From positions 16,366 to 80,365 of the forward strand of contig JBAZZD010000001.1 of assembly GCA_041659005.1 (NCBI GenBank): a stretch of DNA of 64,000 nt, read 5' to 3'. A program made the translations under genes and the position numbers. Origin of the DNA: Minisyncoccota bacterium (GTDB taxonomy: Bacteria > Patescibacteriota > Minisyncoccia > UBA6257 > GWB1-50-10). Under the pieces are notes generated by a model that was not told the DNA's origin, ran no database searches, and saw only the letters and a list, made by a program, of their open reading frames with translations. Positions 14,721 to 28,572 of this stretch are shown here, piece after piece. The stretch's first letter is position 1, and each line of letters begins with the position of its first letter.

Positions 14721-15284
14721 TTAATGCGATAGAAACTTTCCTAATAATCGCTCTTTAACCTGATAAAGCTCTTCTTTAGTAAACACATCCTGATAATCCC
14801 AAAGACGTCCATTTGAACTAAAAGCGTTCAAATAGTGCTCACAGTAAATTTTTGGATTAATAAAGATCGTGTCATCGCGTTTTTCCCAGCCTAGAGCGGA
14901 GGTGTAATCATAGCCAATATCGTAACCGCCGATACCAAGCCATTGATGAGCGAGTATATTACGCCAATTATGGATTGATTCGGCCACCTGAGAAAACCTC
15001 GTGTCAGATGTATCACCGTCAACAAATTTCTCCAAAAATAATTTATATCCCTCAGGACCGCTTTTGTTGAAAAAACCTTCGGAGATCGTAAGTGCGACCG
15101 CGTGAATACCAAGAAACATAAGTGATGTTTGATAGTGATCATCCTCGGTTGTTAAACGAATTTCGTTGTTAAAGAAATTAGCAATAGAATTCAAAAGTGT
15201 TTCTATAATTTCTACAGGAGAACCATTTTGAAAACGTTTGATTCTTTTCTCCAGTGGCTCCAAATTGTGTGCTCGATTTTCCAT
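14721..15284 (-). CDS. Hypothetical protein with HEPN-like Rx4H motif
   Basis: WRNILAHQW matches the R-x4-H-x-aromatic HEPN signature. Co-operonic with the STAND-like gene. Confidence 0.4.
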   Translation of the reverse strand: MENRAHNLEPLEKRIKRFQNGSPVEIIETLLNSIANFFNNEIRLTTEDDHYQTSLMFLGIHAVALTISEGFFNKSGPEGYKLFLEKFVDGDTSDTRFSQVAESIHNWRNILAHQWLGIGGYDIGYDYTSALGWEKRDDTIFINPKIYCEHYLNAFSSNGRLWDYQDVFTKEELYQVKERLLGKFLSH

Positions 15285-15296
15285 CGTTGTTAATAA

Positions 15297-16166
15297 TTAA
15301 GGGTTACAAAATCTTATATAAACTCTTCGTAATTTATTACATAATTCGGGAATATTTTTTTTATCGACGTCTTCTGATTTAGGTATTTTATAATCACGAT
15401 GCACCATTTTATTTACCTCGTTTTTAAATACCCTGACTAAACTACACAAATCCTCAACCAAATCTTTGAAATCATAAAAGGCAGATGAATTTGCCTTTAA
15501 ATTATCAATTAATTTATCAAGATTTAAAATTCTTCCGTTAGTTGTGTCATACCATAATTGGTGATTTTGCTGTATATATTTTCCATTTTCATCCCGTTCC
15601 CTGAAAACTATTTCAAAAACTCTATGAATTATGCATTCTATTAATTTTCTGGTTAGAATCATCACGGCTAAATAAAGTCCTTCTCTATAGCTCTCATTTA
15701 TTTCTTTTTTTATGTAATCTAAAAATGGATCATTAAAATCATACTGTAAAAAATCTAAACTATTTTGAACCCCACTTATTTCTTCTTCTAATAATTCTAT
15801 TTTGTTTTGCGAAATATCTAGTTTGAAATTGGATTTTTTTACTTCGTCTAATAATTCTGGATACCATTTTTTAATATAGGTTCCGTAATAATTCCAGTTA
15901 TCTCTTTGTGTATTTTTTATTTTTTCATCAAAAATTACTTTCTCTAAAATGGCTAAATATCTATATGAAGGAACTCTTTGCATAAACTGAGCAAAATTAT
16001 TTTGCTCAGTACTCATGAATGAATAGGCCTCAAAGTTACTATAAAAATTATCGGGTAAATTAATCCCGTTAGCTTTTAAAAAATCAACAAATCCACCATT
16101 TTCATAACAGTGTATGTATAGCTTTTCAGATAATTCCCATATTCTGTTATTAATTATTAAAGCCAT
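15297..16166 (-). CDS. Hypothetical protein (operon partner of the Mrr-NTPase gene)
   Basis: 289-aa ORF, 3-nt gap to the upstream gene. No family recognised. Confidence 0.45.
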   Translation of the reverse strand: MALIINNRIWELSEKLYIHCYENGGFVDFLKANGINLPDNFYSNFEAYSFMSTEQNNFAQFMQRVPSYRYLAILEKVIFDEKIKNTQRDNWNYYGTYIKKWYPELLDEVKKSNFKLDISQNKIELLEEEISGVQNSLDFLQYDFNDPFLDYIKKEINESYREGLYLAVMILTRKLIECIIHRVFEIVFRERDENGKYIQQNHQLWYDTTNGRILNLDKLIDNLKANSSAFYDFKDLVEDLCSLVRVFKNEVNKMVHRDYKIPKSEDVDKKNIPELCNKLRRVYIRFCNP

Positions 16167-16169
16167 ATT

Positions 16170-19100
16170 TTACGATTTTGGCGATATAAGTTCCTCACCT
16201 TCATCTAGGTGTCTTTTTATATCGTCAGCGATTGATCCAGTTAAAGAATCTACATAGTTTTTTATAACTCCTGGCTGGCACTTGGCGCTTATTTTTTCTA
16301 ATGCTTCTTTTTTATTTACTAATGCAGGTGGAGCTTGCCCTACTGTGGAACTATAACTACCACTTATCACCTGATGAGTAAAAACGTCTTTTGCTTCATC
16401 TAACACCCCTGCTTTTTCGGCCGCCATCAAAAAATTCAAAAACAAATCAATTGTATCTGCACCAAAAGAGATGCCAAAAAAAGCATTAGTAGCTATTTTC
16501 AAACTTTCTGCGTCTCCAGTCTTTATTTTGTCACCAATATAGTGCAATAAATAGTCGCCGTGTTCACTATCATGACCACCAATGCTTTTACCCAAAAATC
16601 CATCAATATCGAAAGAGAATAAAAGTTCCTCATTTCGCCAAAAATTAATTTTATCCATCAATTTTGCAAAATCATCATAGTTCTTAATTAGCTCCGTAGC
16701 CGAACGAAAACCGTCAAAGGGAATTGCATCAAATTTTTCAGCGCCTCTATTTTTAAAATATTCGCTCTGTTTTTTGAGACGATATTCAACCAATTCAATA
16801 AACTGATCCAAATCACCATTAAGTGCAAATTTTAATAGATCGTCTGTGTGATAATCTACCGAAGGGATATCTTTTATTATTTCAAATAATTTTTTACGAA
16901 TTTTATCTAAATCACCGCTTGGTAAATTCCAATTTACGGCATTGTGAACTAGAAAATCGAACATATCTAATACGTTGCTGTTGACTACACCACTTAAAGA
17001 CTGCTCAAGAATATTCACAACCTGGTTTTTTTCTGTTTGATCCCTGTCCTTAAAAATAAAATAAGAACGATGAAGAATAAGATTCTTAAGATAATCATCT
17101 GCTTTCTCAATAATCTGAGATATCCACGGCATAAATTCTGCCGTAGAAACATTATGTCGTATTATAAGGTCTAAAAGATTGTCTACAGCTTGGCGTTGAA
17201 GATTATTTAAATCTCCTAAGATTCGGCTAGCATATTTCATTATGTATTGTTTATCCCTATCGGAGGCAACTCTATAAATTCCGAGATGGAATCTATTAGG
17301 AACACTACTCAACAAATTTTCATCATCTACGATCTCAATAAATGATTGGTTATTGAATTTAGACCAAGTCTCAACTAAAGGAATAGTCTGCCATTGAGTA
17401 ATTCCCTTCACTTCATTCTCAAGTTCATATAAGTATTTAATAATCTCGGCTCTGCTTTTATATTTATTAGATAGCCTTTTTACTACCTCATCCAACTCTT
17501 CCTGTGGAAAATCATGAAGTCGAAAGTGATTATGAACAAGCCAAGACCATCTATCGCTCTCGGGGGCTCCAGACTCTATTTTTTTAAAATCGGAAATAAT
17601 CAAATCATGAGCCACAAAATATCGAAAAATAATGTATTCCATTGATCTCGGAAAATTTCTAAGTATGCCAGCAATTTTATCGCTCAAATCTAAATAAATA
17701 TTATTATTAGCCCAATATCTAACAAGAACGTCTTCGATAGAACTAAGCACCTCATGAGAACTTGTTTCGCTAATTAATTTCTCTAACCATTCAATAGCTT
17801 TTGTTTTATCGGATAGAATCCTCTTCCAAAAATCATCGCTTGTGGAGGTTGCCTCGTGACCGATGTCATCAACAATTTCCACGCCTATTTTTTTAATCTT
17901 GTCATTGGAGTGAAGAACCAACTTTTTCAGGACATCCATTCCTACATCTCTAAACTCATCCACTGGTTTTTTGTATATACCTTCATAACGCAGAATTCTT
18001 CTACCAAAAGTTATTTGGTTACCGTAACTTTCCCTATGTTCATGCGATCCAGAAAGGGATTCCAAGACACCATCGCTAGCAAGCCTTGCTTCGAGTTCGG
18101 TACAATTTCCTTTGCTAACCCAATCCAATAATTCCTTTAGTGATTGAGTAGCTGAAGCTATATTTACTTCAATGGGTGATATCGCTTGTTTTATAAGACT
18201 AGCGGGCTTGTAATTATCGTAAGTACCCTTAAGGTCTTTCTGGGCAAGATAAAGAATCAATTTTAATATTGCTTTTTCAAATCCAGGTACATGCAAAACA
18301 TGGTAAATGACTGGCCCATAAGTATCCCGATTTAGTCCATATGAATTCTGTGTATTCGATGAATTTACATAGGCATAAACCAAACTGATTGCCTCTTCAG
18401 GGGCTAAAAAAGCAATAGAAGCAGCGAGTTCTAATATTTTAGATTTAGATGAATCGGATGTCTCAGATGTTTCATTAATCCATTTTTGGAAAAGCTCCTT
18501 CACGGCTTCGTTCGCCGAATTCGTATCCTTATGTCTAGATGCAGCTGCCAAATTTGCTGTGAGTTGTTTAGGGTAGATAGATAACCAATTCTCAAACATT
18601 TCGTTCGCTAAATCTTTTCCATTTTCTTTATCTAATTCTACAGAAAGATAGATATCTCCTTTCATGTCAGGATTAAATCTTATCGAGGCGCCAACAACAC
18701 GAAGAATTTTTGCCTCAATAAGTTTATTCAGAGCTTCGTTTATTAAATCTACTTTTAATTCCAAAACAGTTGCCAACTTATCAAGCACATTATTTCCACG
18801 TTTTTCTTTTGAAAATGGGACAATAATAGATAGCTCTCTTAAAAAAGCCTTTGAGTTGCGTTCATCTAATACACCCTTAAGTGCGTTTACGGTTTCTTGG
18901 TCTAAATTATCTTTAATCTGCTTTTTAACTTGACTCGGGTTTAAGTCGCCACCCTTAATAAGTTTTCCTGTCGTGATTATTAAAAACAAATTTCCATTTA
19001 GTTCTTTTACGATTCTTTCTGGATGATTAATCTTTTTTGAATCAGCTGCTAGATTTAAAATTTCTATAAGTTCCTTCTCGGAAAGATGAGGTAACTCAAG

Positions 19101-20027
19101 TAAATTATAATTATCTACCCGCTGCGAATCCGCTAAATTCTTAACAATTTCTTTCCCAGAACTGCGACAAGACAAGACAACCTTTAACTTTCCAGGAGAA
19201 AATGTCTTAGTGTGAGCAATTAATTTTCTTGTATCGTCTAAATATCTTTCAGCGTCATCTAGAAATATCAAGGAATTCTTTTCGTGATCTAACTCATTGA
19301 TAGCTTCGTTAATATCTCTAATCCCAGGTCGACAAAACCATGTTTGAATACCTGGCCATAAAGAATCGCCATTTTTTCCAGATTCTACAATAAAATGTGT
19401 TTTTCCATAGCCACCTCCAGAATGAACAATAAGAAGATTAGATGTATTTTTTTGTATAAATTCCTTTAAAATATTTACTGATTCTTCTCGGCCGACAAAA
19501 ACTCCTTTAAGAAGCGGCTCTGATTCGGCGAATACATGAGCTGGAACGAATGTTGGTTCTTGGGGATCGCCAAAGTAGTTATGCCTTAATAGCGGATATT
19601 GAGTTGTTTTACTTTCTAAGTTGGCTCGCGGCCAAATAAATAACTGATCGACGAATTTTTTATTTTCGTTTAGCTTCTCAAGTTTACCTATATGATCGTC
19701 GGTGCCTATTCTCAAATCAGCATTTGTCGCAACCAGTAAAAAATTCACTTTATTCTTCTTTGCCTTTTCTAACTCCTTTTTAATCTCTCTCTGTAATTGT
19801 TTATAGGCTGCCTCAAGATTATGTTTGGTCCATTTCGCTTGGAAATTCCAAACACCCTTAAGACCCATATATGGTCCGTCATAACGCCCATCCCAACCGC
19901 CATCTGCTCCAATTTCCGGATTGCTTGAGAGAAAAGCGGGGTGGTTAATTTCTAATGCAAAAAGATCGTTTACTAAACGTTGGAAGTCTCTATCATTATT
20001 GATTTTATTCCAATCTAGGTTTTTCAT
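16170..20027 (-). CDS. Large defense-like protein: N-terminal Mrr-like restriction endonuclease domain + P-loop (STAND-like) NTPase + long helical-repeat C-terminus (Avs-like architecture)
   Basis: N-terminus GADGGWDGRYDG..FQAKW (Mrr_cat-like PD-(D/E)xK). Walker A LIVHSGGGYGKTHF. Walker B LIFLDDAERY. About 950 aa of helical repeats. Start overlaps the res stop (ATGA). Confidence 0.6.
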   Translation of the reverse strand: MKNLDWNKINNDRDFQRLVNDLFALEINHPAFLSSNPEIGADGGWDGRYDGPYMGLKGVWNFQAKWTKHNLEAAYKQLQREIKKELEKAKKNKVNFLLVATNADLRIGTDDHIGKLEKLNENKKFVDQLFIWPRANLESKTTQYPLLRHNYFGDPQEPTFVPAHVFAESEPLLKGVFVGREESVNILKEFIQKNTSNLLIVHSGGGYGKTHFIVESGKNGDSLWPGIQTWFCRPGIRDINEAINELDHEKNSLIFLDDAERYLDDTRKLIAHTKTFSPGKLKVVLSCRSSGKEIVKNLADSQRVDNYNLLELPHLSEKELIEILNLAADSKKINHPERIVKELNGNLFLIITTGKLIKGGDLNPSQVKKQIKDNLDQETVNALKGVLDERNSKAFLRELSIIVPFSKEKRGNNVLDKLATVLELKVDLINEALNKLIEAKILRVVGASIRFNPDMKGDIYLSVELDKENGKDLANEMFENWLSIYPKQLTANLAAASRHKDTNSANEAVKELFQKWINETSETSDSSKSKILELAASIAFLAPEEAISLVYAYVNSSNTQNSYGLNRDTYGPVIYHVLHVPGFEKAILKLILYLAQKDLKGTYDNYKPASLIKQAISPIEVNIASATQSLKELLDWVSKGNCTELEARLASDGVLESLSGSHEHRESYGNQITFGRRILRYEGIYKKPVDEFRDVGMDVLKKLVLHSNDKIKKIGVEIVDDIGHEATSTSDDFWKRILSDKTKAIEWLEKLISETSSHEVLSSIEDVLVRYWANNNIYLDLSDKIAGILRNFPRSMEYIIFRYFVAHDLIISDFKKIESGAPESDRWSWLVHNHFRLHDFPQEELDEVVKRLSNKYKSRAEIIKYLYELENEVKGITQWQTIPLVETWSKFNNQSFIEIVDDENLLSSVPNRFHLGIYRVASDRDKQYIMKYASRILGDLNNLQRQAVDNLLDLIIRHNVSTAEFMPWISQIIEKADDYLKNLILHRSYFIFKDRDQTEKNQVVNILEQSLSGVVNSNVLDMFDFLVHNAVNWNLPSGDLDKIRKKLFEIIKDIPSVDYHTDDLLKFALNGDLDQFIELVEYRLKKQSEYFKNRGAEKFDAIPFDGFRSATELIKNYDDFAKLMDKINFWRNEELLFSFDIDGFLGKSIGGHDSEHGDYLLHYIGDKIKTGDAESLKIATNAFFGISFGADTIDLFLNFLMAAEKAGVLDEAKDVFTHQVISGSYSSTVGQAPPALVNKKEALEKISAKCQPGVIKNYVDSLTGSIADDIKRHLDEGEELISPKS

Positions 20028-22387
20028 AATTCAAGTGCCATCCATTCTTTCCAATCATCCTGTTCGCATTTCTCCCAATCATAAATAGCCTTGTCGCTGA
20101 TGTGCCAGGCACGATTGCGTTCAATGACAATACCGCCGAAAAGCTTCTTGTTTTTCTGATCGGCAATGTATTTCTGCAAAGCTTCGGCTTTAGCTTTGGT
20201 GTAGGTTATACCGTCCCGATCACCGGAGTCTTTGACTTCAAACAAACCGATTCGACCGTCGGCAAACTTCACTAAATAGTCCGGGTAGAACGTATAGATG
20301 CCTCCGGCATATTCGTACTTTATGCCAAAGTAATCCTGCTTATTCTCTCCATTTTTCCACCACCAATCAATCTTAGAGGCGTTGTCGTTCAAGAATGACT
20401 CAAACTCACGTTCTGGCTTTGAGCGATCCACATTGAGATAACACGGATCATAAGCATACTTTTTCGCTTTTACGATTTCATCGGTGTACTCGTTATAAAA
20501 CTGCTCAGGCTGAAGCTCAAAAGGATATCGCTGTTCGCTTTCCTCGATACGCTCTCGGACTTCCTGCTCTTTAACAGCCTTATAGTTATCAATCGCCGTA
20601 GCCAGTACGTGCTCAAAGTAGCCACGATTTTTATCGTGCAAGAAAACCTTCTGCGCCATGAGCATATTTTCCTCACCCCAGCTCTTTGAGCCGAGCACCC
20701 CCTGAAACCAGAGATAGATGGCCGCTTTAACCGACGGGACCGAACGCTTCACGTTCTTGAAAGGTCCGAGATTGTTTTTAATGGTCTGCTCAAAAAAGAC
20801 CATGAGCTCGTCGGCCGCCACCTGAAGCTTGGCAAAACCTTCGGCACCGAGCTTACCCTCAAGCTCATCAAAACTTTTTATATCCAAATGCGTATCGGCG
20901 ATAATTTCTTGCTGATACTTCTTGATATTGAGATCAACGCCCTTGCTCTCAACTTTCTTGGCGTTCTCCGCTGGTTTATTTTTGCGTGATACGCCAAAGT
21001 ATTTATTGGCTGTTTCTTCAAAGACATCGTGGAAGCTGGATGTGACATCGCCATAATCCGCTCGAGCTTTGTAGTACGACTCTATCTTGAGCGATTTGTA
21101 ATCCTTTGTGCGTCCAGCTCGCAAATGCTTGATGATGTTCGGATTGTATTCTTCCTTTTTAACTTCGATTGATTTGAGATTGGTATAGATATAACCACGA
21201 TTGAGCATTTCGTGTCCGTAGTGTCGCTGTTCCGGCATACGCAAAATACGGCCAACAGTTTGGATTTCAAAGACGATATTATGTGTCTCTCGAAACTTCA
21301 CAAGAATGTGTGCTCGAGGACAATCCCAGCCGGTATCAATGGCTTGCTTGAAAATAAGAAATTCAATCTCGTTATCCGGCTCGGCGATCCAATCAATAAG
21401 CTCTGACTTCTGTTCGGCCAGCCAGATAGCCAGCTTGCCGTTGCCGTGCCCATCTTTACGTTCAACGATACTCTTACCAGCCAGAAATTTCTTCACTGCT
21501 TCGATCTTTTGGTCACCAGCTTCTGCGGTAGGAATCTGTACCAGAACCAAAGGATTGATATGTGATCCTTCTTTTTCAAATACCTTTTTAAGTTCTAGAC
21601 GCTTACGATAGGCGGCCTCGAGTACAGCTGATTGTGAGTCATCTTCGGAAGCGGCGATTTTCTCTATATCCTCGTTGATGATGATTTCTTTCTTAATCAT
21701 ACCTTCGTCAATCACATCTTTCGGCTCGACTATGACATAGCCAGCACCGCCTCGAGCCAGTTCCTGGGTAAAACCGAGCTCCTGCTGTGGCCGACGGGGA
21801 GTAGCGGACATTTCGATCACAATATCTGCACCGATAAGGTCGCGGAGCTCATTTGCCCGGGCTGTGTCAGCACTTACGTGGCTCTCATCAATAATAAGAA
21901 TGATTTTACGTTGCTCTCTGGTCTTCTCGAGCACATCCCGAAAATTTAACTTCTCGCCGTCTTTCATGACCAAGTTTTTCCAATCTCCGGATTCACGTTC
22001 CTTGCTTCGAAGTTTTTCCCAGTTGGCGACCACGACTTCGTTTTGCACGATCCGTTCACGCCCACCGCTAAAGGCATTCTCGACAGATGTAACTCGAGGG
22101 AAACCAGCGAATACCTTTTCGAGCGAATGTTTGCTCTGTAAATGAAGCTCACCCTTACCGATACTCATCCAAACAAAGCAAAAATCTTCTTTGGGGAGTT
22201 CTTTGATAATACCCTCGATGTACTTAGCCATCATGATGGTCTTACCCGAACCAGTGGGAGATTGAAAGACGCACACTTCGCCCGGGCCGTCATAACCCAA
22301 AAGCTTGACCGTTGTTTCGATCAGCTGATTAACGGCTTTTTCTTGATAAGGTTTAAGATCAATATTCATAAATTTGTTTATATACAT
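20024..22387 (-). CDS. res: Type III restriction enzyme Res subunit (SF2 helicase + endonuclease)
   Basis: Walker A FQSPTGSGKT and IIDESH (DEAH-like) box. Overlaps mod by 29 nt. Confidence 0.75.
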   Translation of the reverse strand: MYINKFMNIDLKPYQEKAVNQLIETTVKLLGYDGPGEVCVFQSPTGSGKTIMMAKYIEGIIKELPKEDFCFVWMSIGKGELHLQSKHSLEKVFAGFPRVTSVENAFSGGRERIVQNEVVVANWEKLRSKERESGDWKNLVMKDGEKLNFRDVLEKTREQRKIILIIDESHVSADTARANELRDLIGADIVIEMSATPRRPQQELGFTQELARGGAGYVIVEPKDVIDEGMIKKEIIINEDIEKIAASEDDSQSAVLEAAYRKRLELKKVFEKEGSHINPLVLVQIPTAEAGDQKIEAVKKFLAGKSIVERKDGHGNGKLAIWLAEQKSELIDWIAEPDNEIEFLIFKQAIDTGWDCPRAHILVKFRETHNIVFEIQTVGRILRMPEQRHYGHEMLNRGYIYTNLKSIEVKKEEYNPNIIKHLRAGRTKDYKSLKIESYYKARADYGDVTSSFHDVFEETANKYFGVSRKNKPAENAKKVESKGVDLNIKKYQQEIIADTHLDIKSFDELEGKLGAEGFAKLQVAADELMVFFEQTIKNNLGPFKNVKRSVPSVKAAIYLWFQGVLGSKSWGEENMLMAQKVFLHDKNRGYFEHVLATAIDNYKAVKEQEVRERIEESEQRYPFELQPEQFYNEYTDEIVKAKKYAYDPCYLNVDRSKPEREFESFLNDNASKIDWWWKNGENKQDYFGIKYEYAGGIYTFYPDYLVKFADGRIGLFEVKDSGDRDGITYTKAKAEALQKYIADQKNKKLFGGIVIERNRAWHISDKAIYDWEKCEQDDWKEWMALEL

Positions 22388-24089
22388 CTAATATCTTTTG
22401 AGGAATGGGTTCGAGCGTAACACCATGCCAGTTAGCGAACTCTGTTTTTGAAAGACCTGTGGCATCGAGCGTGAAGCAGTAAAGTATTTTCTCACCATCA
22501 ATTTCCTTTAGCTCTTTTTTCAAGGCGGGCAATGATTTACGGTCCAAAGAATAGTAAACAGCCAGCGTTTTATTGCCTTGTTGGAATATACGATAGTGAT
22601 CGGTCTTTTTTACTTCATCAAACACGCCTTCTCGCAAACAAAGCATCTCGGTGCATTCCTGTGTAATCCGTATCTTAAAGTCATCGCCGTTGGCGTTCTT
22701 TTTTACGAATTTTGTCTTGAAATATTTAAGAGAGCCACCCGTACCCGGCACTTTTACATTTTCAGAATTTTTATATCCTCCAGATACATTTTTCAGTCGA
22801 GGATAGCAAACTTCCGTACAAATATTGCCCTCGTCATTAGTACAAAGTATAAATTCTCTTTTTCCACCGTCCTGATTAAGTTCAAGAACTGCGTGACCCG
22901 TAGTACCTGAACCGGCAAAAAAATCGAGAACAATCCCGTCTTTTTTGATGGAGAGATTGATACATTTTTTAATTAGCTCAACTGATTTAGGGAAGTCAAA
23001 AAGATGCTGATGAAACATACTTTTCAAAACCTCTTTCCCGTTTTCGTTGTTTATGTTTTTATCTAACCATAAAGCTTTTTCTTTGGTTGTAGCTGTTTCT
23101 CCATTCTGCTTTATAAGACGATCTTTTCTATAGACTCGCCAAGCACCTGTTGAAACCTTTTTACCGACAAGATCAGTTATTTCCTTGGCGACTTTTTCTT
23201 TACCCCATGTCCAGCAACCGTCTTCGTTTTTAGAGTTGCGTGGGTAGACCTCAACATAGCCTTTCTTGTTAGTTAAAGAAACTACACCATTTTTTAAATC
23301 AACAAAAAGTGGGTAATAAAGATTTGGTCGGTTCTTTCGATTAAAGACAGGGTTACGATTTCTTAATTCCAAGAGACGATATTTCCCTTTCTCGTCCTCT
23401 TTATCATATTCGGCCAGCATTTCCTCACCTTTAGTAGGTTCTATAATTTGTGCAATGTTAAAATCCTTGGCGAAAACTAAAATATATTCAAAAGTTTTTG
23501 CGAAATGTTTATCAAGCGTTCTGCCTCGCGGATTTAGTTGGACAACAAGTTGAGCAATAAAGTTTTTCTCTCCAAAAATATCATCACATAATAGTTTAAG
23601 GTGCGAGACTTCATTGTCGTCTATGCTAATGAAAATAACCCCGGAGTCCTTAAGTAGGTTTTTTGCGAGCTGAATTCTCTTTGCCATAAAAGAGAGCCAT
23701 TTACTGTGCCGATATGCATCTTCTCTGTCGACGTAATTGTCATTATATTTAAAGTCCTTGTTGCCCGTGTTATACGGCGGATCAATATAGATCACATCAA
23801 CCTTACCTTGATGCGTAAAATTCAAAACTGAGAGAGCATGATAATTATCTCCCTCGATCAAAATATTAACCGGCCTGGACGGGTCCTTGTCAGTAATTTC
23901 CTTAGAACCGATTTCTTTTAGTACCGGTAAAGCATTCTCTGCATCTTTCTCAAATTGTTCTTTGACTTTTTCCTCATCCCAAATAAGCCCGTACTTCTTT
24001 CGGGACTCCAACTTCTCAACAATTTTGACTAACTCTTCTTTGCTGAGTTGGGAGTAGTCTTTTCCATTTTTGGCGATTTCCTTTTGCAT
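22359..24089 (-). CDS. mod: Type III R-M DNA methyltransferase Mod subunit (N6A/N4C beta-class)
   Basis: Motif IV IYIDPPYNTGN and motif I VLDFFAGSGTTGHAV. Confidence 0.8.
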   Translation of the reverse strand: MQKEIAKNGKDYSQLSKEELVKIVEKLESRKKYGLIWDEEKVKEQFEKDAENALPVLKEIGSKEITDKDPSRPVNILIEGDNYHALSVLNFTHQGKVDVIYIDPPYNTGNKDFKYNDNYVDREDAYRHSKWLSFMAKRIQLAKNLLKDSGVIFISIDDNEVSHLKLLCDDIFGEKNFIAQLVVQLNPRGRTLDKHFAKTFEYILVFAKDFNIAQIIEPTKGEEMLAEYDKEDEKGKYRLLELRNRNPVFNRKNRPNLYYPLFVDLKNGVVSLTNKKGYVEVYPRNSKNEDGCWTWGKEKVAKEITDLVGKKVSTGAWRVYRKDRLIKQNGETATTKEKALWLDKNINNENGKEVLKSMFHQHLFDFPKSVELIKKCINLSIKKDGIVLDFFAGSGTTGHAVLELNQDGGKREFILCTNDEGNICTEVCYPRLKNVSGGYKNSENVKVPGTGGSLKYFKTKFVKKNANGDDFKIRITQECTEMLCLREGVFDEVKKTDHYRIFQQGNKTLAVYYSLDRKSLPALKKELKEIDGEKILYCFTLDATGLSKTEFANWHGVTLEPIPQKILDVYKQIYEY

Positions 24090-24095
24090 AAAATT

Positions 24096-24287
24096 TTATT
24101 TCTTCTTACGTTTAACATTGCTCGTGTCCTCAAGAAAAGCATTTAGGTCCGACTGCTTGATCCGCCAGACTCCGAGCTTGGATGCTTTAAGCCGGCCGGC
24201 TTCGATGTACCGTGTGACCGTGCGTGTATGCACTCGTAAAATTTTAGCGACTTCCTCAATCGTAAAAAGTTTTTCGATTTCGTTCAT
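24096..24287 (-). CDS. Excisionase-family/MerR-like HTH DNA-binding protein
   Basis: 63 aa. LFTIEEVAKILRVHTRTVTRYIEAGRLKASKLG matches the Xis-family HTH. Immediately upstream of mod. Confidence 0.7.
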   Translation of the reverse strand: MNEIEKLFTIEEVAKILRVHTRTVTRYIEAGRLKASKLGVWRIKQSDLNAFLEDTSNVKRKKK

Positions 24288-24400
24288 AAAAATATATTAG
24301 TCGTTGATACCATTTTACCGCTTCTGCTTTTCGTTGTCAAAAACGCCGTCTTTTGTCATAATGAGCTTAACAACAAAAAGAGCACACTGTTTTAACAATA

Positions 24401-24895: not shown

Positions 24896-25096
24896 ATGTT
24901 GCCCCAAGAAGCAATCCAAGAATTTAAAACACTGTACGAAAAACGCTACGGCGTAAAGCTCTCCGATGAGGAGGCTGCTTTGCGCGCGAATAATCTTTTC
25001 AAACTTTACAAGATCACCTACATGGGTGAGCCAAACATCGACGACTTCAAAGAAAAAGTAGTGAAAAGCCATGACCTCAACACCAACCACAATTAG
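24896..25096 (+). CDS. Hypothetical small protein
   Basis: 66-aa ORF in the GC-rich segment. No family recognised. Confidence 0.3.
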   Translation: MLPQEAIQEFKTLYEKRYGVKLSDEEAALRANNLFKLYKITYMGEPNIDDFKEKVVKSHDLNTNHN

Positions 25097-25379
25097 CGAA
25101 ATACAGTTCTACCCGGTTAAACCCCAGGACGGCCTCCTTGGGTTTGTTTCGTTTGTCCTGGACAGCAAATTCTGGATGGGATCGGTGGCTGTTTTCTCCA
25201 GGCGCGAGGGCGGATACCGGCTTGTGTATCCAACACGCAAAGTTGCCGGACAAAACATTAATATTTTTCATCCAATTAACCACGAAGTCGGCATCCTGGT
25301 CGAAAAAGCCGTCAGTGAAAAAGTAGCTGAAATATTTAGTGAATCATATGAACAAACCGAACCGGACAACACGTGGTAA
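25071..25379 (+). CDS. SpoVG-family protein
   Basis: ISEIQFYPV..DGLLGFVSFVLD..F.....V....EGGYRLVYPTRK....INIFHPIN..VG..VEKAV aligns with the conserved SpoVG core (..HPIN..). Confidence 0.6.
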   Translation: MTSTPTTISEIQFYPVKPQDGLLGFVSFVLDSKFWMGSVAVFSRREGGYRLVYPTRKVAGQNINIFHPINHEVGILVEKAVSEKVAEIFSESYEQTEPDNTW

Positions 25380-26063: not shown

Positions 26064-26927
26064 ATGACAAACAAAGCCAAAATAACCACCGTAATCGCCC
26101 TTGTAGCGGTCTTTGGTGCAGGATTCGGGGTTTATTACCTTCTAGGAAACAAAGCACCGCGCGGAGGCACGAATACAGACGTAGCCTCAATTACGACATT
26201 CGAGCAATGCTCTGAGGCCGGTTACCCGATCGTTAAGCATTATCCAGATCAGTGCAAAACTCCGGACGGTAGAATTTTTGTAAACGACAATCCTCCAAGC
26301 CAAACAGAGCTTGTGAAAGCCGAGCAAACAATTCGAACGTTCATGGGAGAGCTGAATCTGGAGTTGCAATACACCGGACAAAATAATCATCCCACGAATT
26401 TTGCCGTCTTAAGCAACGTTAAACAGAACGACGGCGGATTTACGGCCGACAATCCCGAAGAATGGGACCGGCCGGTCTACATCTTCCAGCAAACAGATTA
26501 CATCAACGACCGCTGCGAAGTTTATCAATATCAGGTAACGCAAAAAACGAATCAGGTCGTGGAAATCGGAATTGTCTATCCGATAGAACGCAACGCTACC
26601 ACGCCAGGTAATTGCCCTGGTAACGGATCGCTGGAAACTCCGCTGAAGACCAAAGCTGAAATCGAACAAATTGCCTTCGCTTATTTCGGCAGAGACCCGG
26701 AACACACGAAATTCATGCTTCGCTCCGACATCCAGCTTAAATACATCTCAAGCAAACCAGGCGCAGCAAACCCGGCTGCCAATGAATGGCAATGGGAAGA
26801 CAAAAACGCCTCACTGCCGGACGGACTGACCGGCGATCCGTGGCAGCACCCGATTGCCAGAATCATAATATCAAGTGGCGGTAAACTGATTTACTATCTG
26901 AACACCACCGACTTATTCCAAAACTAA
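26064..26927 (+). CDS. Secreted/membrane-anchored hypothetical protein
   Basis: N-terminal TM/signal (ITTVIALVAVFGAGFGVYYLL). GC-rich. No family recognised. Confidence 0.5.
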   Translation: MTNKAKITTVIALVAVFGAGFGVYYLLGNKAPRGGTNTDVASITTFEQCSEAGYPIVKHYPDQCKTPDGRIFVNDNPPSQTELVKAEQTIRTFMGELNLELQYTGQNNHPTNFAVLSNVKQNDGGFTADNPEEWDRPVYIFQQTDYINDRCEVYQYQVTQKTNQVVEIGIVYPIERNATTPGNCPGNGSLETPLKTKAEIEQIAFAYFGRDPEHTKFMLRSDIQLKYISSKPGAANPAANEWQWEDKNASLPDGLTGDPWQHPIARIIISSGGKLIYYLNTTDLFQN

Positions 26928-26928
26928 T

Positions 26929-28512
26929 ATGAACCAGGAAGTACAACCAAAACTCAAGTACTTCCTCTACGCTCGAAAATCTTCAGAACAAGAAGACAGA
27001 CAGGTCCTTTCGATTGACTCGCAAAAGAGCGAATTGGAAGCACTCGCAAAACGGGAAAAGCTTCAGATTGTGGAGCGTCTCGAAGAATCCTATTCAGCCA
27101 AAGCACCAGGCCGGGAGATCTTTAACGCGATGATAAAACGAATAGAGAAAGGTGAAGCGGAGGGCATTGTTGCGTGGCATCCGAACCGGCTCTCACGTAA
27201 TTCCGTGGACACCGGCTACCTGGTCTACCTTATGGACCAGAATAAACTCCTCGAAATCCGAACACCCGGACAGGCATTTAAGAATTCGCCAAATGATAAA
27301 TTTTTACTAAACCTCCTGTGCAGCCAAGCCAAACTCGAAAACGACAACAAGGGCGTGGACGTAAAACGTGGACTCAGGCGCAAAGTAGAGATGGGCTGGC
27401 ATCCGGGCGTTGCTCCAATCGGCTATATGAATACGCCGGACAAAATGAAAGGTTTTAAGACGATCCGCAAAGACCCGAAGATGTTTCCGATAATCCGGAA
27501 AATGTTCGATATGATTTTGAGCGGTACATACACCGCGCCACGTGTCCATGAAATTGCCGTCAATCAATGGGGCTTAAAGAAACTCGCCCGAAGCGGTTTC
27601 TACCGCGTGCTTTACAATTCCTTTTACTACAGTTGGTTTGAGTGGCCGGCCGGATCGGGCAACTGGCACAAGGGCAAGCACGAACCGATGATCACGCGCG
27701 ATGAATATGACCGCGTTCAGGCACTCCTTGGCCGTGGCAGCAAGCCAAAACCAGAAGCACATTCATTCGCATATACCGGAATGATCCGATGTGGTGAATG
27801 CGGATGCATGGTAACGGCCGAGAATAAAATAAAGAAAAATAAGAACGGCAATGTCCACCACTACACTTATTACCACTGCACGAAACGCAAAGGTCCATGC
27901 GCTCAGAAATGCATAGAAGTGAAAGAAATGGAAAAGCAGATTACCGGCACGCTTGCTAAAGTCCGGCCACCGGAAGAATTCCACGGCTGGGCAATGAAGT
28001 GGCTGCAGAACGAGAACGGTCGCGAAGCGGCCGACCGCAATGCGATCCTCTCTAATCAGCAGAAAAATTACGAAGCATGTGTGCGGAAACTGGACGCGCT
28101 TATAGATATGCGTGCAGCTGGGGAAATTAGTGAAGAAGAATTTGCACGAAAAAAATCAACGATCAATCAGGAGAAAGCAAAACTGCATGAGCTTTTGAAT
28201 GATACTGACGCGCGGGTGGACAGCTGGCTGCAGACGGCCGATAACGTGATCAAGTTCGCAACAGACGCCAAAGAAGCATTTACGGAACGGGGCCAGCACG
28301 CGAGAAAAGTCATTTTATCCGCCTTAGGTTCGAACCTCCTCCTAAAGGACAAAAACATAAGCATTGACACGGATTCTGCGCTTCTGCCGATGATTCTCGT
28401 CTCAAATTCGTCCGCAAAAAATTCTGGCACGTTCGAACCTCCGAATGAAGGCTCTAATAAAGAGAAAAGCCACGCTTTTGACGTGGCAAATCCCATGTGG
28501 CTCCCCGGGTAG
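26929..28512 (+). CDS. Large serine recombinase (phage-integrase type)
   Basis: Resolvase N-terminal domain YARKSSEQEDRQVLSIDSQ with catalytic Ser. Recombinase domain. C-terminal zinc ribbon CGECGCMV..YYHCTKRKGPCAQKC. Last ~14 nt overlap tRNA-Asn. Confidence 0.85.
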   Translation: MNQEVQPKLKYFLYARKSSEQEDRQVLSIDSQKSELEALAKREKLQIVERLEESYSAKAPGREIFNAMIKRIEKGEAEGIVAWHPNRLSRNSVDTGYLVYLMDQNKLLEIRTPGQAFKNSPNDKFLLNLLCSQAKLENDNKGVDVKRGLRRKVEMGWHPGVAPIGYMNTPDKMKGFKTIRKDPKMFPIIRKMFDMILSGTYTAPRVHEIAVNQWGLKKLARSGFYRVLYNSFYYSWFEWPAGSGNWHKGKHEPMITRDEYDRVQALLGRGSKPKPEAHSFAYTGMIRCGECGCMVTAENKIKKNKNGNVHHYTYYHCTKRKGPCAQKCIEVKEMEKQITGTLAKVRPPEEFHGWAMKWLQNENGREAADRNAILSNQQKNYEACVRKLDALIDMRAAGEISEEEFARKKSTINQEKAKLHELLNDTDARVDSWLQTADNVIKFATDAKEAFTERGQHARKVILSALGSNLLLKDKNISIDTDSALLPMILVSNSSAKNSGTFEPPNEGSNKEKSHAFDVANPMWLPG

Positions 28513-28572
28513 GACTCGAACCTACAACCATCGCGTTAACAGCGCGCCGCTCAACCATTGAGCTACCGGGGA
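28498..28572 (-). tRNA. tRNA-Asn (GTT)
   Basis: Hand-folded cloverleaf. Acceptor TCCCCGG/CCGGGGA. D-arm GCTC-AATGGTT-GAGC. Anticodon loop CTGTTAA. T-arm GTAGG-TTCGAGT-CCTAC. Encoded CCA. Confidence 0.8.

Follow-up and report, generated by a model that had tools for sequence, protein, structure and literature searches.

One gene in the 64,000-nt stretch of Minisyncoccota DNA analysed here (the window; GC 0.37) probably specifies an Avs-like immune receptor of the antiviral STAND type, made as a single chain, a reading to which we assign a probability of about 70%. Its computed basis comprises the identities of three domains, the conservation of catalytic and NTP-binding residues, Avs4 and Avs5 as the best-matching solved structures, a defence-island context and the swapping of N-terminal domains among homologues. 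Ligand-induced oligomerisation, proximity activation of the nuclease and abortive infection are proposed by analogy with Avs3, Avs4 and Avs7.

Domain architecture and conserved residues

The single 1285-aa reading frame of the initial annotation was borne out (Table 1), and its start is backed by family conservation from residues 3-6 (LDW). Homology searches recovered 82 homologous clusters, nearly all full-length and collinear, so the frame is not a chance one; every family member is annotated as hypothetical. The motifs first read from the sequence, GADGGWDG, QAKW and the Walker A and B segments, are all present and turned out to be the most conserved positions among 45-75 homologues: E26, D42, D46, G208, K209 and D257 are invariant, and Q63, K65, D258, R261 and R288 are conserved in at least 90%. 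The structure was predicted in two parts, split at residue 166. The proposed layout of effector, NTPase and sensor was tested part by part, and all three parts held.

Table 1. Features of the nuclease-NTPase-solenoid gene and its neighbours in the window
Feature	Positions	Strand	Basis
Whole gene, 1285-aa nuclease-STAND NTPase-solenoid protein	16170..20027	-	ORF list; 82 homologues; NCBI MFA5870300.1 (annotated hypothetical protein)
PD-(D/E)xK (Mrr-type) nuclease domain, residues 1-165	19533..20027	-	Predicted
GADGGWDG loop, residues 40-47, with D42 and D46 (predicted metal-binding acidic residues)	19887..19910	-	Invariant columns; just before strand 2 of model
QAKW, residues 63-66, Q-x-K variant of (D/E)xK catalytic motif, strand 3	19830..19841	-	Q63/K65 at least 90% conserved; model strand 56-65
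P-loop nucleotide-binding core, residues ~180-315	19083..19490	-	Five-strand alpha/beta core in model; PF25199 match 180-289; weak AAA+ matches, profile positions 164-298
Walker A GGGYGKT, residues 204-210	19398..19418	-	G208 and K209 invariant
Walker B LIFLDD, residues 253-258, then A-E-R261	19254..19271	-	D257 invariant; D258, R261 at least 90%
R288, predicted sensor-1 arginine, end of strand 4 (VVLSCR)	19164..19166	-	At least 90% conserved; closes model strand 116-123
Helical lid and winged helix, residues ~316-455	18663..19082	-	Model helices 152-237, then two helices and hairpin at 246-286
Alpha-solenoid, presumed sensor, residues ~456-1285, one beta-hairpin insert ~662-677	16173..18662	-	Model; Foldseek matches to Avs4 and HEAT/ARM solenoids; architecture-exclusive
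289-aa gene, 3 nt downstream of NTPase gene; frequent, not obligate companion	15297..16166	-	43-61% identical homologues directly downstream in other loci
187-aa gene, last of 5.3-kb cassette; WRNILAH (R-x4-H pattern)	14721..15284	-	92% DNA block; 80% aa identity in L011
Type III restriction subunit (Res); stop overlaps NTPase start codon	20024..22387	-	ResIII 4.7e-19; PADLOC REase_III; ATGA overlap
Type III methyltransferase (Mod)	22359..24089	-	N6_N4_Mtase 1.9e-38; PADLOC MTase_III 1.8e-91
HTH_17 (excisionase/MerR-like) small gene, operon head	24096..24287	-	PF12728 1.1e-16
Large serine recombinase, 3' end overlaps tRNA-Asn (28498..28572, -)	26929..28512	+	Resolvase and Zn_ribbon_recom; tRNA; GC 0.44-0.49 vs 0.29-0.38 in flanks

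The N-terminal domain has the alpha-beta-beta-beta-alpha-beta core of PD-(D/E)xK nucleases; an acidic residue precedes strand 2, and strand 3 carries a (D/E/Q)xK motif. Fold and motif agree with the Mrr-like N-terminus first proposed, but the Mrr_cat profile does not: at E <= 1, PF04471 matched neither the full protein nor any of 33 N-terminal domains. One Cap4_nuclease match (E 0.033) turned up among the 33 domains in Pfam, and the PDB, searched by sequence and by profile, returned nothing for the nuclease domain. The fold and the acidic ... Q-x-K active-site pattern are common to the nuclease heads of Mrr/Mrr_cat (PF04471), MspJI/AspBHI and Type ISP enzymes. Unlike in Mrr-type restriction nucleases, however, the domain is fused here to an NTPase switch and not to a DNA-recognition domain.

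In the AF2 model (pLDDT 88.3), residues ~175-451 are predicted to form a P-loop core, a helical lid and a winged helix, in the order of a NOD module, and the winged-helix hairpin bears an invariant RF-PD--GD motif (R450, F451, P453, D454, G457 and D458). This order is common to Cdc6/ORC AAA+ proteins too, and is necessary but not sufficient for STAND. When aligned over the 45-75 sequences, the Walker A segment fits the GxxxxGK[ST] pattern and the Walker B segment the hhhhD(D/E) pattern expected of STAND proteins. Leipe et al. in 2004 reportedly listed among STAND traits a conserved sensor-1 arginine that closes strand 4.

The first assignment had been drawn from motifs with no database hit. 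No match indeed rises above threshold, but a sub-threshold match to PF25199 (nSTAND_NTPase5) was found in the protein, with 24.8 bits and E 2.2e-5 against a gathering score of 34. Besides this, Pfam, NCBIfam and PADLOC searches with the protein yielded only matches to Hda (the best NCBIfam match, E 0.0024) and PDC-M58A (E 0.024). PF25199 alone among Pfam families matches the central domain of all members tested (8/8, 24.8-44.9 bits), and the match is precomputed for 79 of the 82 homologues. Three of seven relatives reach its gathering score and the other four score 27.7-33.2, with weak NB-ARC and NPHP3_N matches besides. Since close relatives stay at ~33 bits and only more distant members pass (42.7-44.9 and 34.1), the family sits at the edge of the PF25199 model. 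The Pfam entry covers only the ~145-residue NTPase core and gives no function, and a literature search for 'nSTAND5' found nothing relevant.

These matches also bear on a reading in which the protein is not an immune receptor, but an AAA+ protein that resembles Cdc6/ORC or a clamp loader, is joined to a nuclease and acts in replication, repair or mobile-element maintenance. With the central region, PDB searches by sequence and by profile returned only weak AAA+ matches (DnaI loader, 0.0024, then MgsA, RFC and DnaA), which together with the Hda match and the recombinase-bearing island would fit such a role. We consider it highly improbable, as the AAA+ matches lie far below family thresholds and are confined to the P-loop core, whereas all members have a STAND family as their top Pfam match and sensor 1 is an arginine, as in STAND proteins. 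Moreover, tblastn searches of plasmid and phage collections gave no match, and the solenoid, the swappable effector, the patchy cross-domain spread and the defence neighbours are typical of Avs/NLR proteins rather than replication factors.

The C-terminal region, initially described as helical over ~950 aa, is indeed an all-helical, irregular alpha-solenoid with HEAT/ARM-like matches, but the presumed sensor spans only ~830 aa; the model assigns the remaining ~170 aa to the NTPase module, as its helical lid and winged helix. The ~830-residue sensor is strongly conserved, collinear across the family and exclusive to the nuclease-NTPase-solenoid architecture, and no specific structural relative of it was found with Foldseek.

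Relationship to Avs proteins and family spread

An effector, an NTPase and a large sensor are joined in one chain, which is the arrangement of Avs proteins in the broad sense. In the structural comparison that had been suggested, the best Foldseek matches in the PDB for residues 166-1285 were Avs4, followed by Avs5, with a global TM to Avs4 of only 0.14-0.19 and a structural-alignment identity of 12-16%. Judged by sequence, the protein is Avs-like and not a sequence-level member of Avs1-5. When the protein and seven diverse members were scanned, the PADLOC Avs models gave no match (the best was Avs2, E 0.0029, in 1/8 members), and Avs4 in PADLOC was not matched at E <= 0.1. Neither phmmer nor hmmsearch found a match to 8dgf.

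Avs4 (EcAvs4-Mrr, PDB 8DGF) has the identical order of an N-terminal Mrr-type PD-(D/E)xK nuclease, a STAND NTPase module and a large C-terminal helical sensor, and is of a similar size class (~1540 aa vs 1285 aa here). In contrast to Avs4, the NTPase here lies near Pfam nSTAND5. The solenoid lacks a specific match and so gives no ground for presuming that it recognises the portal. A literature search on Avs4 catalytic mutants found nothing relevant. In Avs5 (AVAST type 5; EfAvs5, 9JAP and 9NC9), the NTPase likewise belongs to a 'novel STAND' Pfam family, nSTAND3 (PMC12931631), but Avs5 carries a SIR2 effector and forms filaments, whereas a nuclease effector and nSTAND5 are found here.

The family is rare, occurring in 24 of 185,579 species genomes, and among 1.84 billion cluster representatives 158 contain its sensor. 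Members are MDD8019995.1, HRZ95530.1, MBU7028783.1, HDQ23226.1 and WP_424722022.1, among others. The range takes in CPR bacteria as well as further bacterial phyla and several archaeal phyla. The N-terminal position is variable: the nuclease is replaced by SMEK_N in Sulfurovum and by an unrelated ~215-aa domain in Methanoculleus, and an extra HTH precedes it in some members.

Genomic setting and companion genes

The gene sits in a defence island. By raw counts, known defence genes adjoin the gene or lie within 5 kb of it in at least 10 of ~19 non-redundant loci (numbered L below), compared with a defence-neighbour background of 0.0153 used in PMC13581612. The neighbouring genes include Type I, Type III and MmeI-like restriction-modification (R-M) systems, GmrSD, SIR2 and TIR, as well as integrases and recombinases. 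In the window, the overlap of the serine recombinase gene with tRNA-Asn likely marks the island boundary, and an Rfam search returned two tRNAs and nothing else. The best promoter-like site (24340..24312) lies upstream of the HTH_17 gene; the scan for promoters and terminators gave site counts no higher than in shuffles, and only the placement of this best site is suggestive.

R-M contexts of the three types recur among the loci, and the gene is often inside the operon or fused to it. The protein could then be a second-line sensor of the adjacent R-M system, responding for example to anti-restriction proteins or to lost R-M activity, with its nuclease firing only once the first line is disabled. 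PrrC in a Type Ic operon and PARIS, for Ocr, offer parallels. Co-orientation inside or directly after such operons is seen in at least five lineages: the NTPase-gene ATG overlaps the stop of the Type III res gene as ATGA in the window, an MmeI-like methyltransferase gene overlaps by 4 nt in L005 and L032, and the gene lies between hsdM and hsdS in L007, immediately after hsdR in L024 and after an MmeI-like module in L002. We regard this reading as quite improbable. A specific physical interaction is unlikely because the R-M partners are of unrelated types, and several loci have no R-M nearby (L003, L006 and some among L020-L028). Furthermore, a 94%-identical relative, L011, carries the same NTPase-289aa-187aa cassette amid housekeeping genes without R-M, with a decayed HTH_17 copy immediately upstream of the NTPase gene. 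The 92% DNA homology with L011 covers 14749..20029 and ends 2 nt before the NTPase ATG, indicating that the junction with res is a recombination seam and not a co-evolved unit. Unrelated defence genes embedded in R-M operons are common in defence islands. PrrC in the EcoprrI Type Ic operon is likewise a defence gene inserted in an R-M operon, but it has no homology to the present protein, whose R-M association is not obligate (L011, L003, L006). Type III R-M as an obligate partner is ruled out by the 94% relative lacking it.

The tight linkage of two conserved small genes could point to a multi-component system, in which the NTPase protein depends on the 289-aa product, the 187-aa product or both, each serving as effector, inhibitor/antitoxin or adaptor. 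Homologues of the 289-aa gene (43-94% identity) lie immediately 3' of the NTPase gene in L004, L005, L006, L011 and L014, as in the window, and nine pairs of contigs of equal length in the NTPase and 289-aa match lists suggest more co-location. The gaps of 3 nt and 12 nt in the cassette indicate co-translation, and the NTPase-289aa-187aa block has been inherited as a 5.3-kb unit at 92% identity. Polar residues are invariant in the 289-aa family (R173, K174, E177, R182, N252, H256 and D258), and the 187-aa protein has an R-x4-H pattern. We find such a system unlikely, since the 289-aa gene is missing beside the NTPase gene in L001, L002, L003, L007 and most of the distant members, and other copies have no accompanying NTPase gene: one inside a Type I operon (L008), one alone (L009) and one near TIR (L010). 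In addition, L011 alone yielded a homologue of the 187-aa gene, and the family assignments of both small genes are sub-threshold (DUF5677 in 3/34, HEPN_RES_NTD1 in 2/34 and DUF4145 in 1/34 members). As each occurs without the other, the 289-aa gene is ruled out as an obligate partner.

It is likewise rather unlikely that the conserved, architecture-exclusive sensor recognises a trigger class new to Avs, with the 289-aa and 187-aa proteins as co-effectors or inhibitors. Such a trigger might be a protein common to CPR and archaeal viruses, with methanogenic or other archaea as candidate hosts, or an anti-restriction factor. The latter option is prompted by the gene having been fused repeatedly to R-M operons of the Type I, Type III and MmeI-like kinds, and would make the protein a candidate dedicated R-M back-up guard.

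Proposed mechanism and implications

Avs1-4 bind the terminase or the portal directly (PMC13581612), and in Avs3, Avs4 and Avs7 a Cap4 or Mrr nuclease mediates tetramerisation, with two nuclease dimers as the active sites (10.64898/2026.08.25.746987). For the Avs-like receptor we favour, these precedents suggest that the resting protein would be an autoinhibited monomer whose C-terminal alpha-solenoid binds a conserved protein of the infecting virus. Binding would free the P-loop/lid/winged-helix module for nucleotide-dependent oligomerisation, which may pair the N-terminal Mrr-type PD-(D/E)xK domains into active dimers; these would cut DNA indiscriminately and abort the infection. In the window, the 5.3-kb NTPase-289aa-187aa cassette has been joined to the Type III R-M genes behind a shared HTH gene, in a serine-recombinase island, and the outcome is likely a co-transcribed two-layer defence and not an obligate complex.

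Lee et al. 2026 distinguished 589 STAND clades and at least 90 Avs families (PMC13581612), and the present work adds a well-modelled candidate family of Avs-like proteins to this class, few of whose families have known triggers. Such rarity is unusual for a family that reaches from CPR/Patescibacteria into several further bacterial phyla and at least five archaeal lineages, and its spread together with the conserved sensor suggests that a conserved viral fold is recognised in hosts with poorly known viruses. Because CPR genomes are small, devoting 3.9 kb to one immune gene is a considerable outlay. Two cultured Methanoculleus strains, which have relatives of the protein with a different N-terminal domain, provide an experimental entry point, and the module seam between the HTH gene, Mod-Res and the NTPase cassette is a clean case of defence-module shuffling behind a shared regulator.

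Domain architecture of the NTPase protein

The initial annotation proposed, from sequence alone, that the window encodes a 1285-aa protein combining an Mrr-like nuclease, a STAND-like NTPase and helical repeats, as in antiviral STAND (Avs) proteins. The gene is indeed a single uninterrupted 1285-codon open reading frame on the minus strand, and the motifs quoted for it were all found: GADGGWDG (residues 40–47), QAKW (63–66), GGGYGKT (204–210) and LIFLDD (253–258). Homologues were found in 82 of the 5.8 billion protein clusters searched; all are annotated as 'hypothetical' and nearly all comprise proteins of 1265–1350 aa that span the query end to end. MFA5870300.1, from a Candidatus Paceibacterota MAG, has the same sequence. 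Across alignments of 45 and 75 members, conservation is highest in the quoted motifs, with E26, D42, D46, G208, K209 and D257 invariant and Q63, K65, D258, R261 and R288 conserved in at least 90% of members. Together, the reading frame, motifs, homologues and residue conservation confirm the observation far beyond chance.

The N-terminal domain (residues 1–172) was modelled from a 33-sequence alignment with a pLDDT of 89.6 and a pTM of 0.84. The model has the alpha-beta-beta-beta-alpha-beta order of PD-(D/E)xK nucleases, with E26 at the end of helix 1, D42 and D46 before strand 2, and Q63-x-K65 on strand 3. Further down the structural ranking of this domain stand R.BspD6I, AF1548, LlaBIII, AspBHI, N.BspD6I, FokI, MspJI, Can2 and Card1, after which the ranking tails off through many restriction and CBASS/CRISPR-ancillary nucleases. 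No member matched Mrr_cat (PF04471) by HMM, whether the full protein or the 33 N-terminal domains were searched, and a PDB search with the N-terminal-domain profile returned nothing meaningful. Thus, the Mrr-like call holds for fold and active-site pattern, but not for HMM membership of PF04471.

Residues 166–1285, modelled from a 75-sequence alignment (pLDDT 88.3, pTM 0.72), run from a P-loop core through a helical lid and a winged helix to an alpha-solenoid of ~830 residues interrupted by one beta-hairpin insert only. The core is five-stranded: Walker A follows strand 1, Walker B lies on strand 3 and strand 4 terminates in R288. The winged-helix hairpin carries an invariant RF-PD--GD motif. 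The sole Pfam match is nSTAND_NTPase5 (PF25199), at 24.8 bits and under the gathering score of 34; seven diverse relatives score 27.7–44.9 bits, three of them reaching or exceeding the threshold, with minor NB-ARC and NPHP3_N matches among them, and a precomputed PF25199 match exists in 79 of the 82 homologues. In Foldseek searches of the PDB, Avs4 ranked first (8dgf_B and 8dgf_A, E 1.3e-7) and EfAvs5 next (9jap, E 7e-6), followed by HEAT/ARM solenoids including transportin-3, CAND1 and CRM1. The TM-scores are just 0.14–0.19, as expected for flexible multidomain chains, and the predicted structure alone does not separate STAND proteins from their AAA+ cousins. We consider a non-immune AAA+ role very improbable. 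The STAND assignment rests on the sensor-1 arginine, the hhhhDD pattern that the Walker B region shows (LIFLDD), the Pfam family and the tripartite architecture taken together. No PADLOC Avs model matched the protein, placing it outside Avs1–5 by sequence. Overall, the domains and residue conservation, demonstrated computationally, support the nuclease-STAND-solenoid, Avs-like interpretation.

Genomic setting and relation to restriction-modification

Six minus-strand genes are packed closely together here, with the NTPase gene in fourth place; they include a Type III methyltransferase (Mod) and restriction (Res) pair (see table). In a promoter scan that was overall not above chance, the top site falls immediately upstream of the HTH_17 gene. 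Upstream of the operon, a large serine recombinase gene overlaps a tRNA-Asn gene at its 3' end, and GC content is raised to 0.44–0.49 across 24–28 kb, against 0.29–0.38, indicating that the region is an integrated mobile island bearing a defence operon. A SpoVG-like and a 287-aa reading frame lie between the operon and the recombinase gene.

Coordinates of features in the window and in homologous loci of other genomes (L-numbers)
Feature	Locus	Position	Strand	Remark
HTH_17 gene (operon gene 1)	window	24096..24287	-	
Type III Mod gene (2)	window	22359..24089	-	
Type III Res gene (3)	window	20024..22387	-	
NTPase gene (4)	window	16170..20027	-	ATGA overlap with res
289-aa gene (5)	window	15297..16166	-	3-nt gap
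187-aa gene (6)	window	14721..15284	-	12-nt gap
SpoVG-like ORF	window	25071..25379	+	sub-threshold, 28.1 vs 29.6 bits
287-aa ORF	window	26064..26927	+	no family match
Large serine recombinase	window	26929..28512	+	Resolvase + Zn_ribbon_recom + SHOCT
tRNA-Asn	window	28498..28572	-	overlapped by recombinase 3' end
Seam region with HTH_17 remnant	L011	9783-10001		remnant decayed, stop-riddled
187-aa homologue	L011	14744-15307		80% aa identity
SNF2-PLD + MmeI-like module	L005	366-8447		
SNF2-PLD + MmeI-like module	L002	2110-8847		
SNF2-PLD + MmeI-like module	L032	2551-10004		
Homologue with ~215-aa N-terminus	L026	7307-11272		
Homologue with ~215-aa N-terminus	L027	4779-8726		
Homologue with ~215-aa N-terminus	L030	9338-11929		
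Homologue with SMEK_N	L034	8551-12522		Sulfurovum MAG
289-aa homologue	L008	8001-8888		
289-aa homologue	L010	8001-8873		
289-aa homologue	L009	8001-8873		

Homologues in other genomes adjoin Type I restriction-modification (R-M) and GmrSD genes (L001), sit between hsdM and hsdS (L007) or directly after hsdR (L024), follow a SIR2 gene with an integrase nearby (L003), lie beside TIR and integrase genes (L004), or reside on a conjugative-type element (L006). In L002, L005 and L032, the homologue follows a module of SNF2-PLD and MmeI-like methyltransferase genes, with a 4-nt overlap in L005 and L032. These recurrent neighbours, a fused SNF2-PLD protein (~1060–1090 aa) and the methyltransferase (~1140–1180 aa), make up a module that may be R-M-like or DISARM-like; L005 adds an SLFN/AlbA_2-HATPase_c_4 gene.

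In another Patescibacteria MAG, a copy of 94% identity (L011) is surrounded by ABC-transporter, P-type ATPase and LytR genes, showing that the R-M link is not obligatory. Thus, while the R-M neighbours would fit a protein acting as an R-M guard, we regard that role as quite unlikely. The DNA common to the window and L011 is one 5,281-bp block of 92% identity, which corresponds exactly to the NTPase-289aa-187aa cassette, its boundary falling 2 nt before the NTPase start codon. L011 retains a remnant of the HTH_17 gene immediately upstream of its NTPase gene, and in the window Mod-Res therefore lies precisely between HTH_17 and the cassette (HTH_17 to Res, 20024..24287). The junction is a seam left by insertion or deletion of a module, and GC content steps across it from 0.45 in res to 0.35 in the NTPase gene.

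The 289-aa and 187-aa companion genes

The 289-aa protein is one of about 90 members (~290 aa) of an unannotated family with no Pfam domain. In the window and in L004, L005, L006, L011 and L014, its gene immediately follows the NTPase gene, an arrangement that would suit an obligate multi-gene system comprising the NTPase, 289-aa and 187-aa genes. Such a system is unlikely: other NTPase loci are without the 289-aa gene, and 289-aa homologues also occur without the NTPase gene, in a Type I operon (L008, ordered hsdR-hsdM-[295 aa, 4-nt overlap]-[306 aa]-hsdS), near a TIR gene (L010) and in isolation (L009). A homologue of the 187-aa protein was found only in L011. Both genes are treated as frequent co-travellers rather than defining parts.

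The invariant residues of the 289-aa family (R173, K174, E177, R182, N252, H256 and D258) and a few sub-threshold matches to DUF5677, HEPN_RES_NTD1 and DUF4145 suggest, without establishing, a HEPN-like fold. The 187-aa protein had no significant family match; it carries WRNILAH, an R-x4-H pattern resembling the HEPN RNase motif.

Family distribution and proposed mode of action

Only 24 family loci were found among 185,579 species-representative genomes, and the sensor alone matches 158 of 1.84 billion cluster representatives. In full-length matches, proteins of ~1270–1300 aa, it occupies the same position, indicating that it hardly occurs outside this architecture. Bacterial members come from Patescibacteria, Acidobacteriota, KSB1, Omnitrophota, Armatimonadota, Bacteroidota, Gammaproteobacteria, Sulfurovum and a Bdellovibrio-like bacterium, and archaeal members from Methanobacterium, Methanoculleus (two cultured strains, M. 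formosensis Afa-1 and M. methanifontis FWC-SCC3; L026 and L027), Methanomicrobiales, Theionarchaea, Halobacteria and Bathyarchaeia.

The N-terminus varies across the family. Some members have an HTH ahead of the nuclease. A distant Sulfurovum homologue carries SMEK_N (PF21941, E 1.3e-27) in the nuclease's place, and the same Pfam domain is also present in P0082. Methanoculleus and Methanomicrobiales homologues keep the NTPase and sensor, the nuclease being replaced by an unrelated, partly hydrophobic domain of ~215 aa. This domain, which opens with a hydrophobic stretch (WWAWMIEGIMGSLITAALIEWA) and matches no Pfam family, may thus be a membrane-acting effector. Such rarity, together with a patchy distribution across domains of life and swapped effectors, is typical of mobile immune genes.

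The Avs paradigm is the best-supported account of the gene. By analogy, the sensor would bind a conserved viral protein, the NTPase module would then oligomerise, and the Mrr-type heads would be brought together to degrade DNA and abort infection. Each step is supported for analogues by published Avs work: Avs1–4 bind terminase or portal directly (PMC13581612), and Avs3, Avs4 and Avs7 tetramerise via a Cap4 or Mrr nuclease, with active sites built from the two nuclease dimers (10.64898/2026.08.25.746987).

A 2026 survey of prokaryotic STAND proteins delineated 589 clades, associating 198 of these with defence, and counted at least 90 families of Avs sensors, nSTAND clades included (PMC13581612). 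Against these numbers, the nuclease-STAND-solenoid protein is another, uncharacterised case of a known class. Its appeal lies in its rarity, its conserved sensor, a range that takes in CPR bacteria as well as archaea, and repeated attachment to R-M operons.
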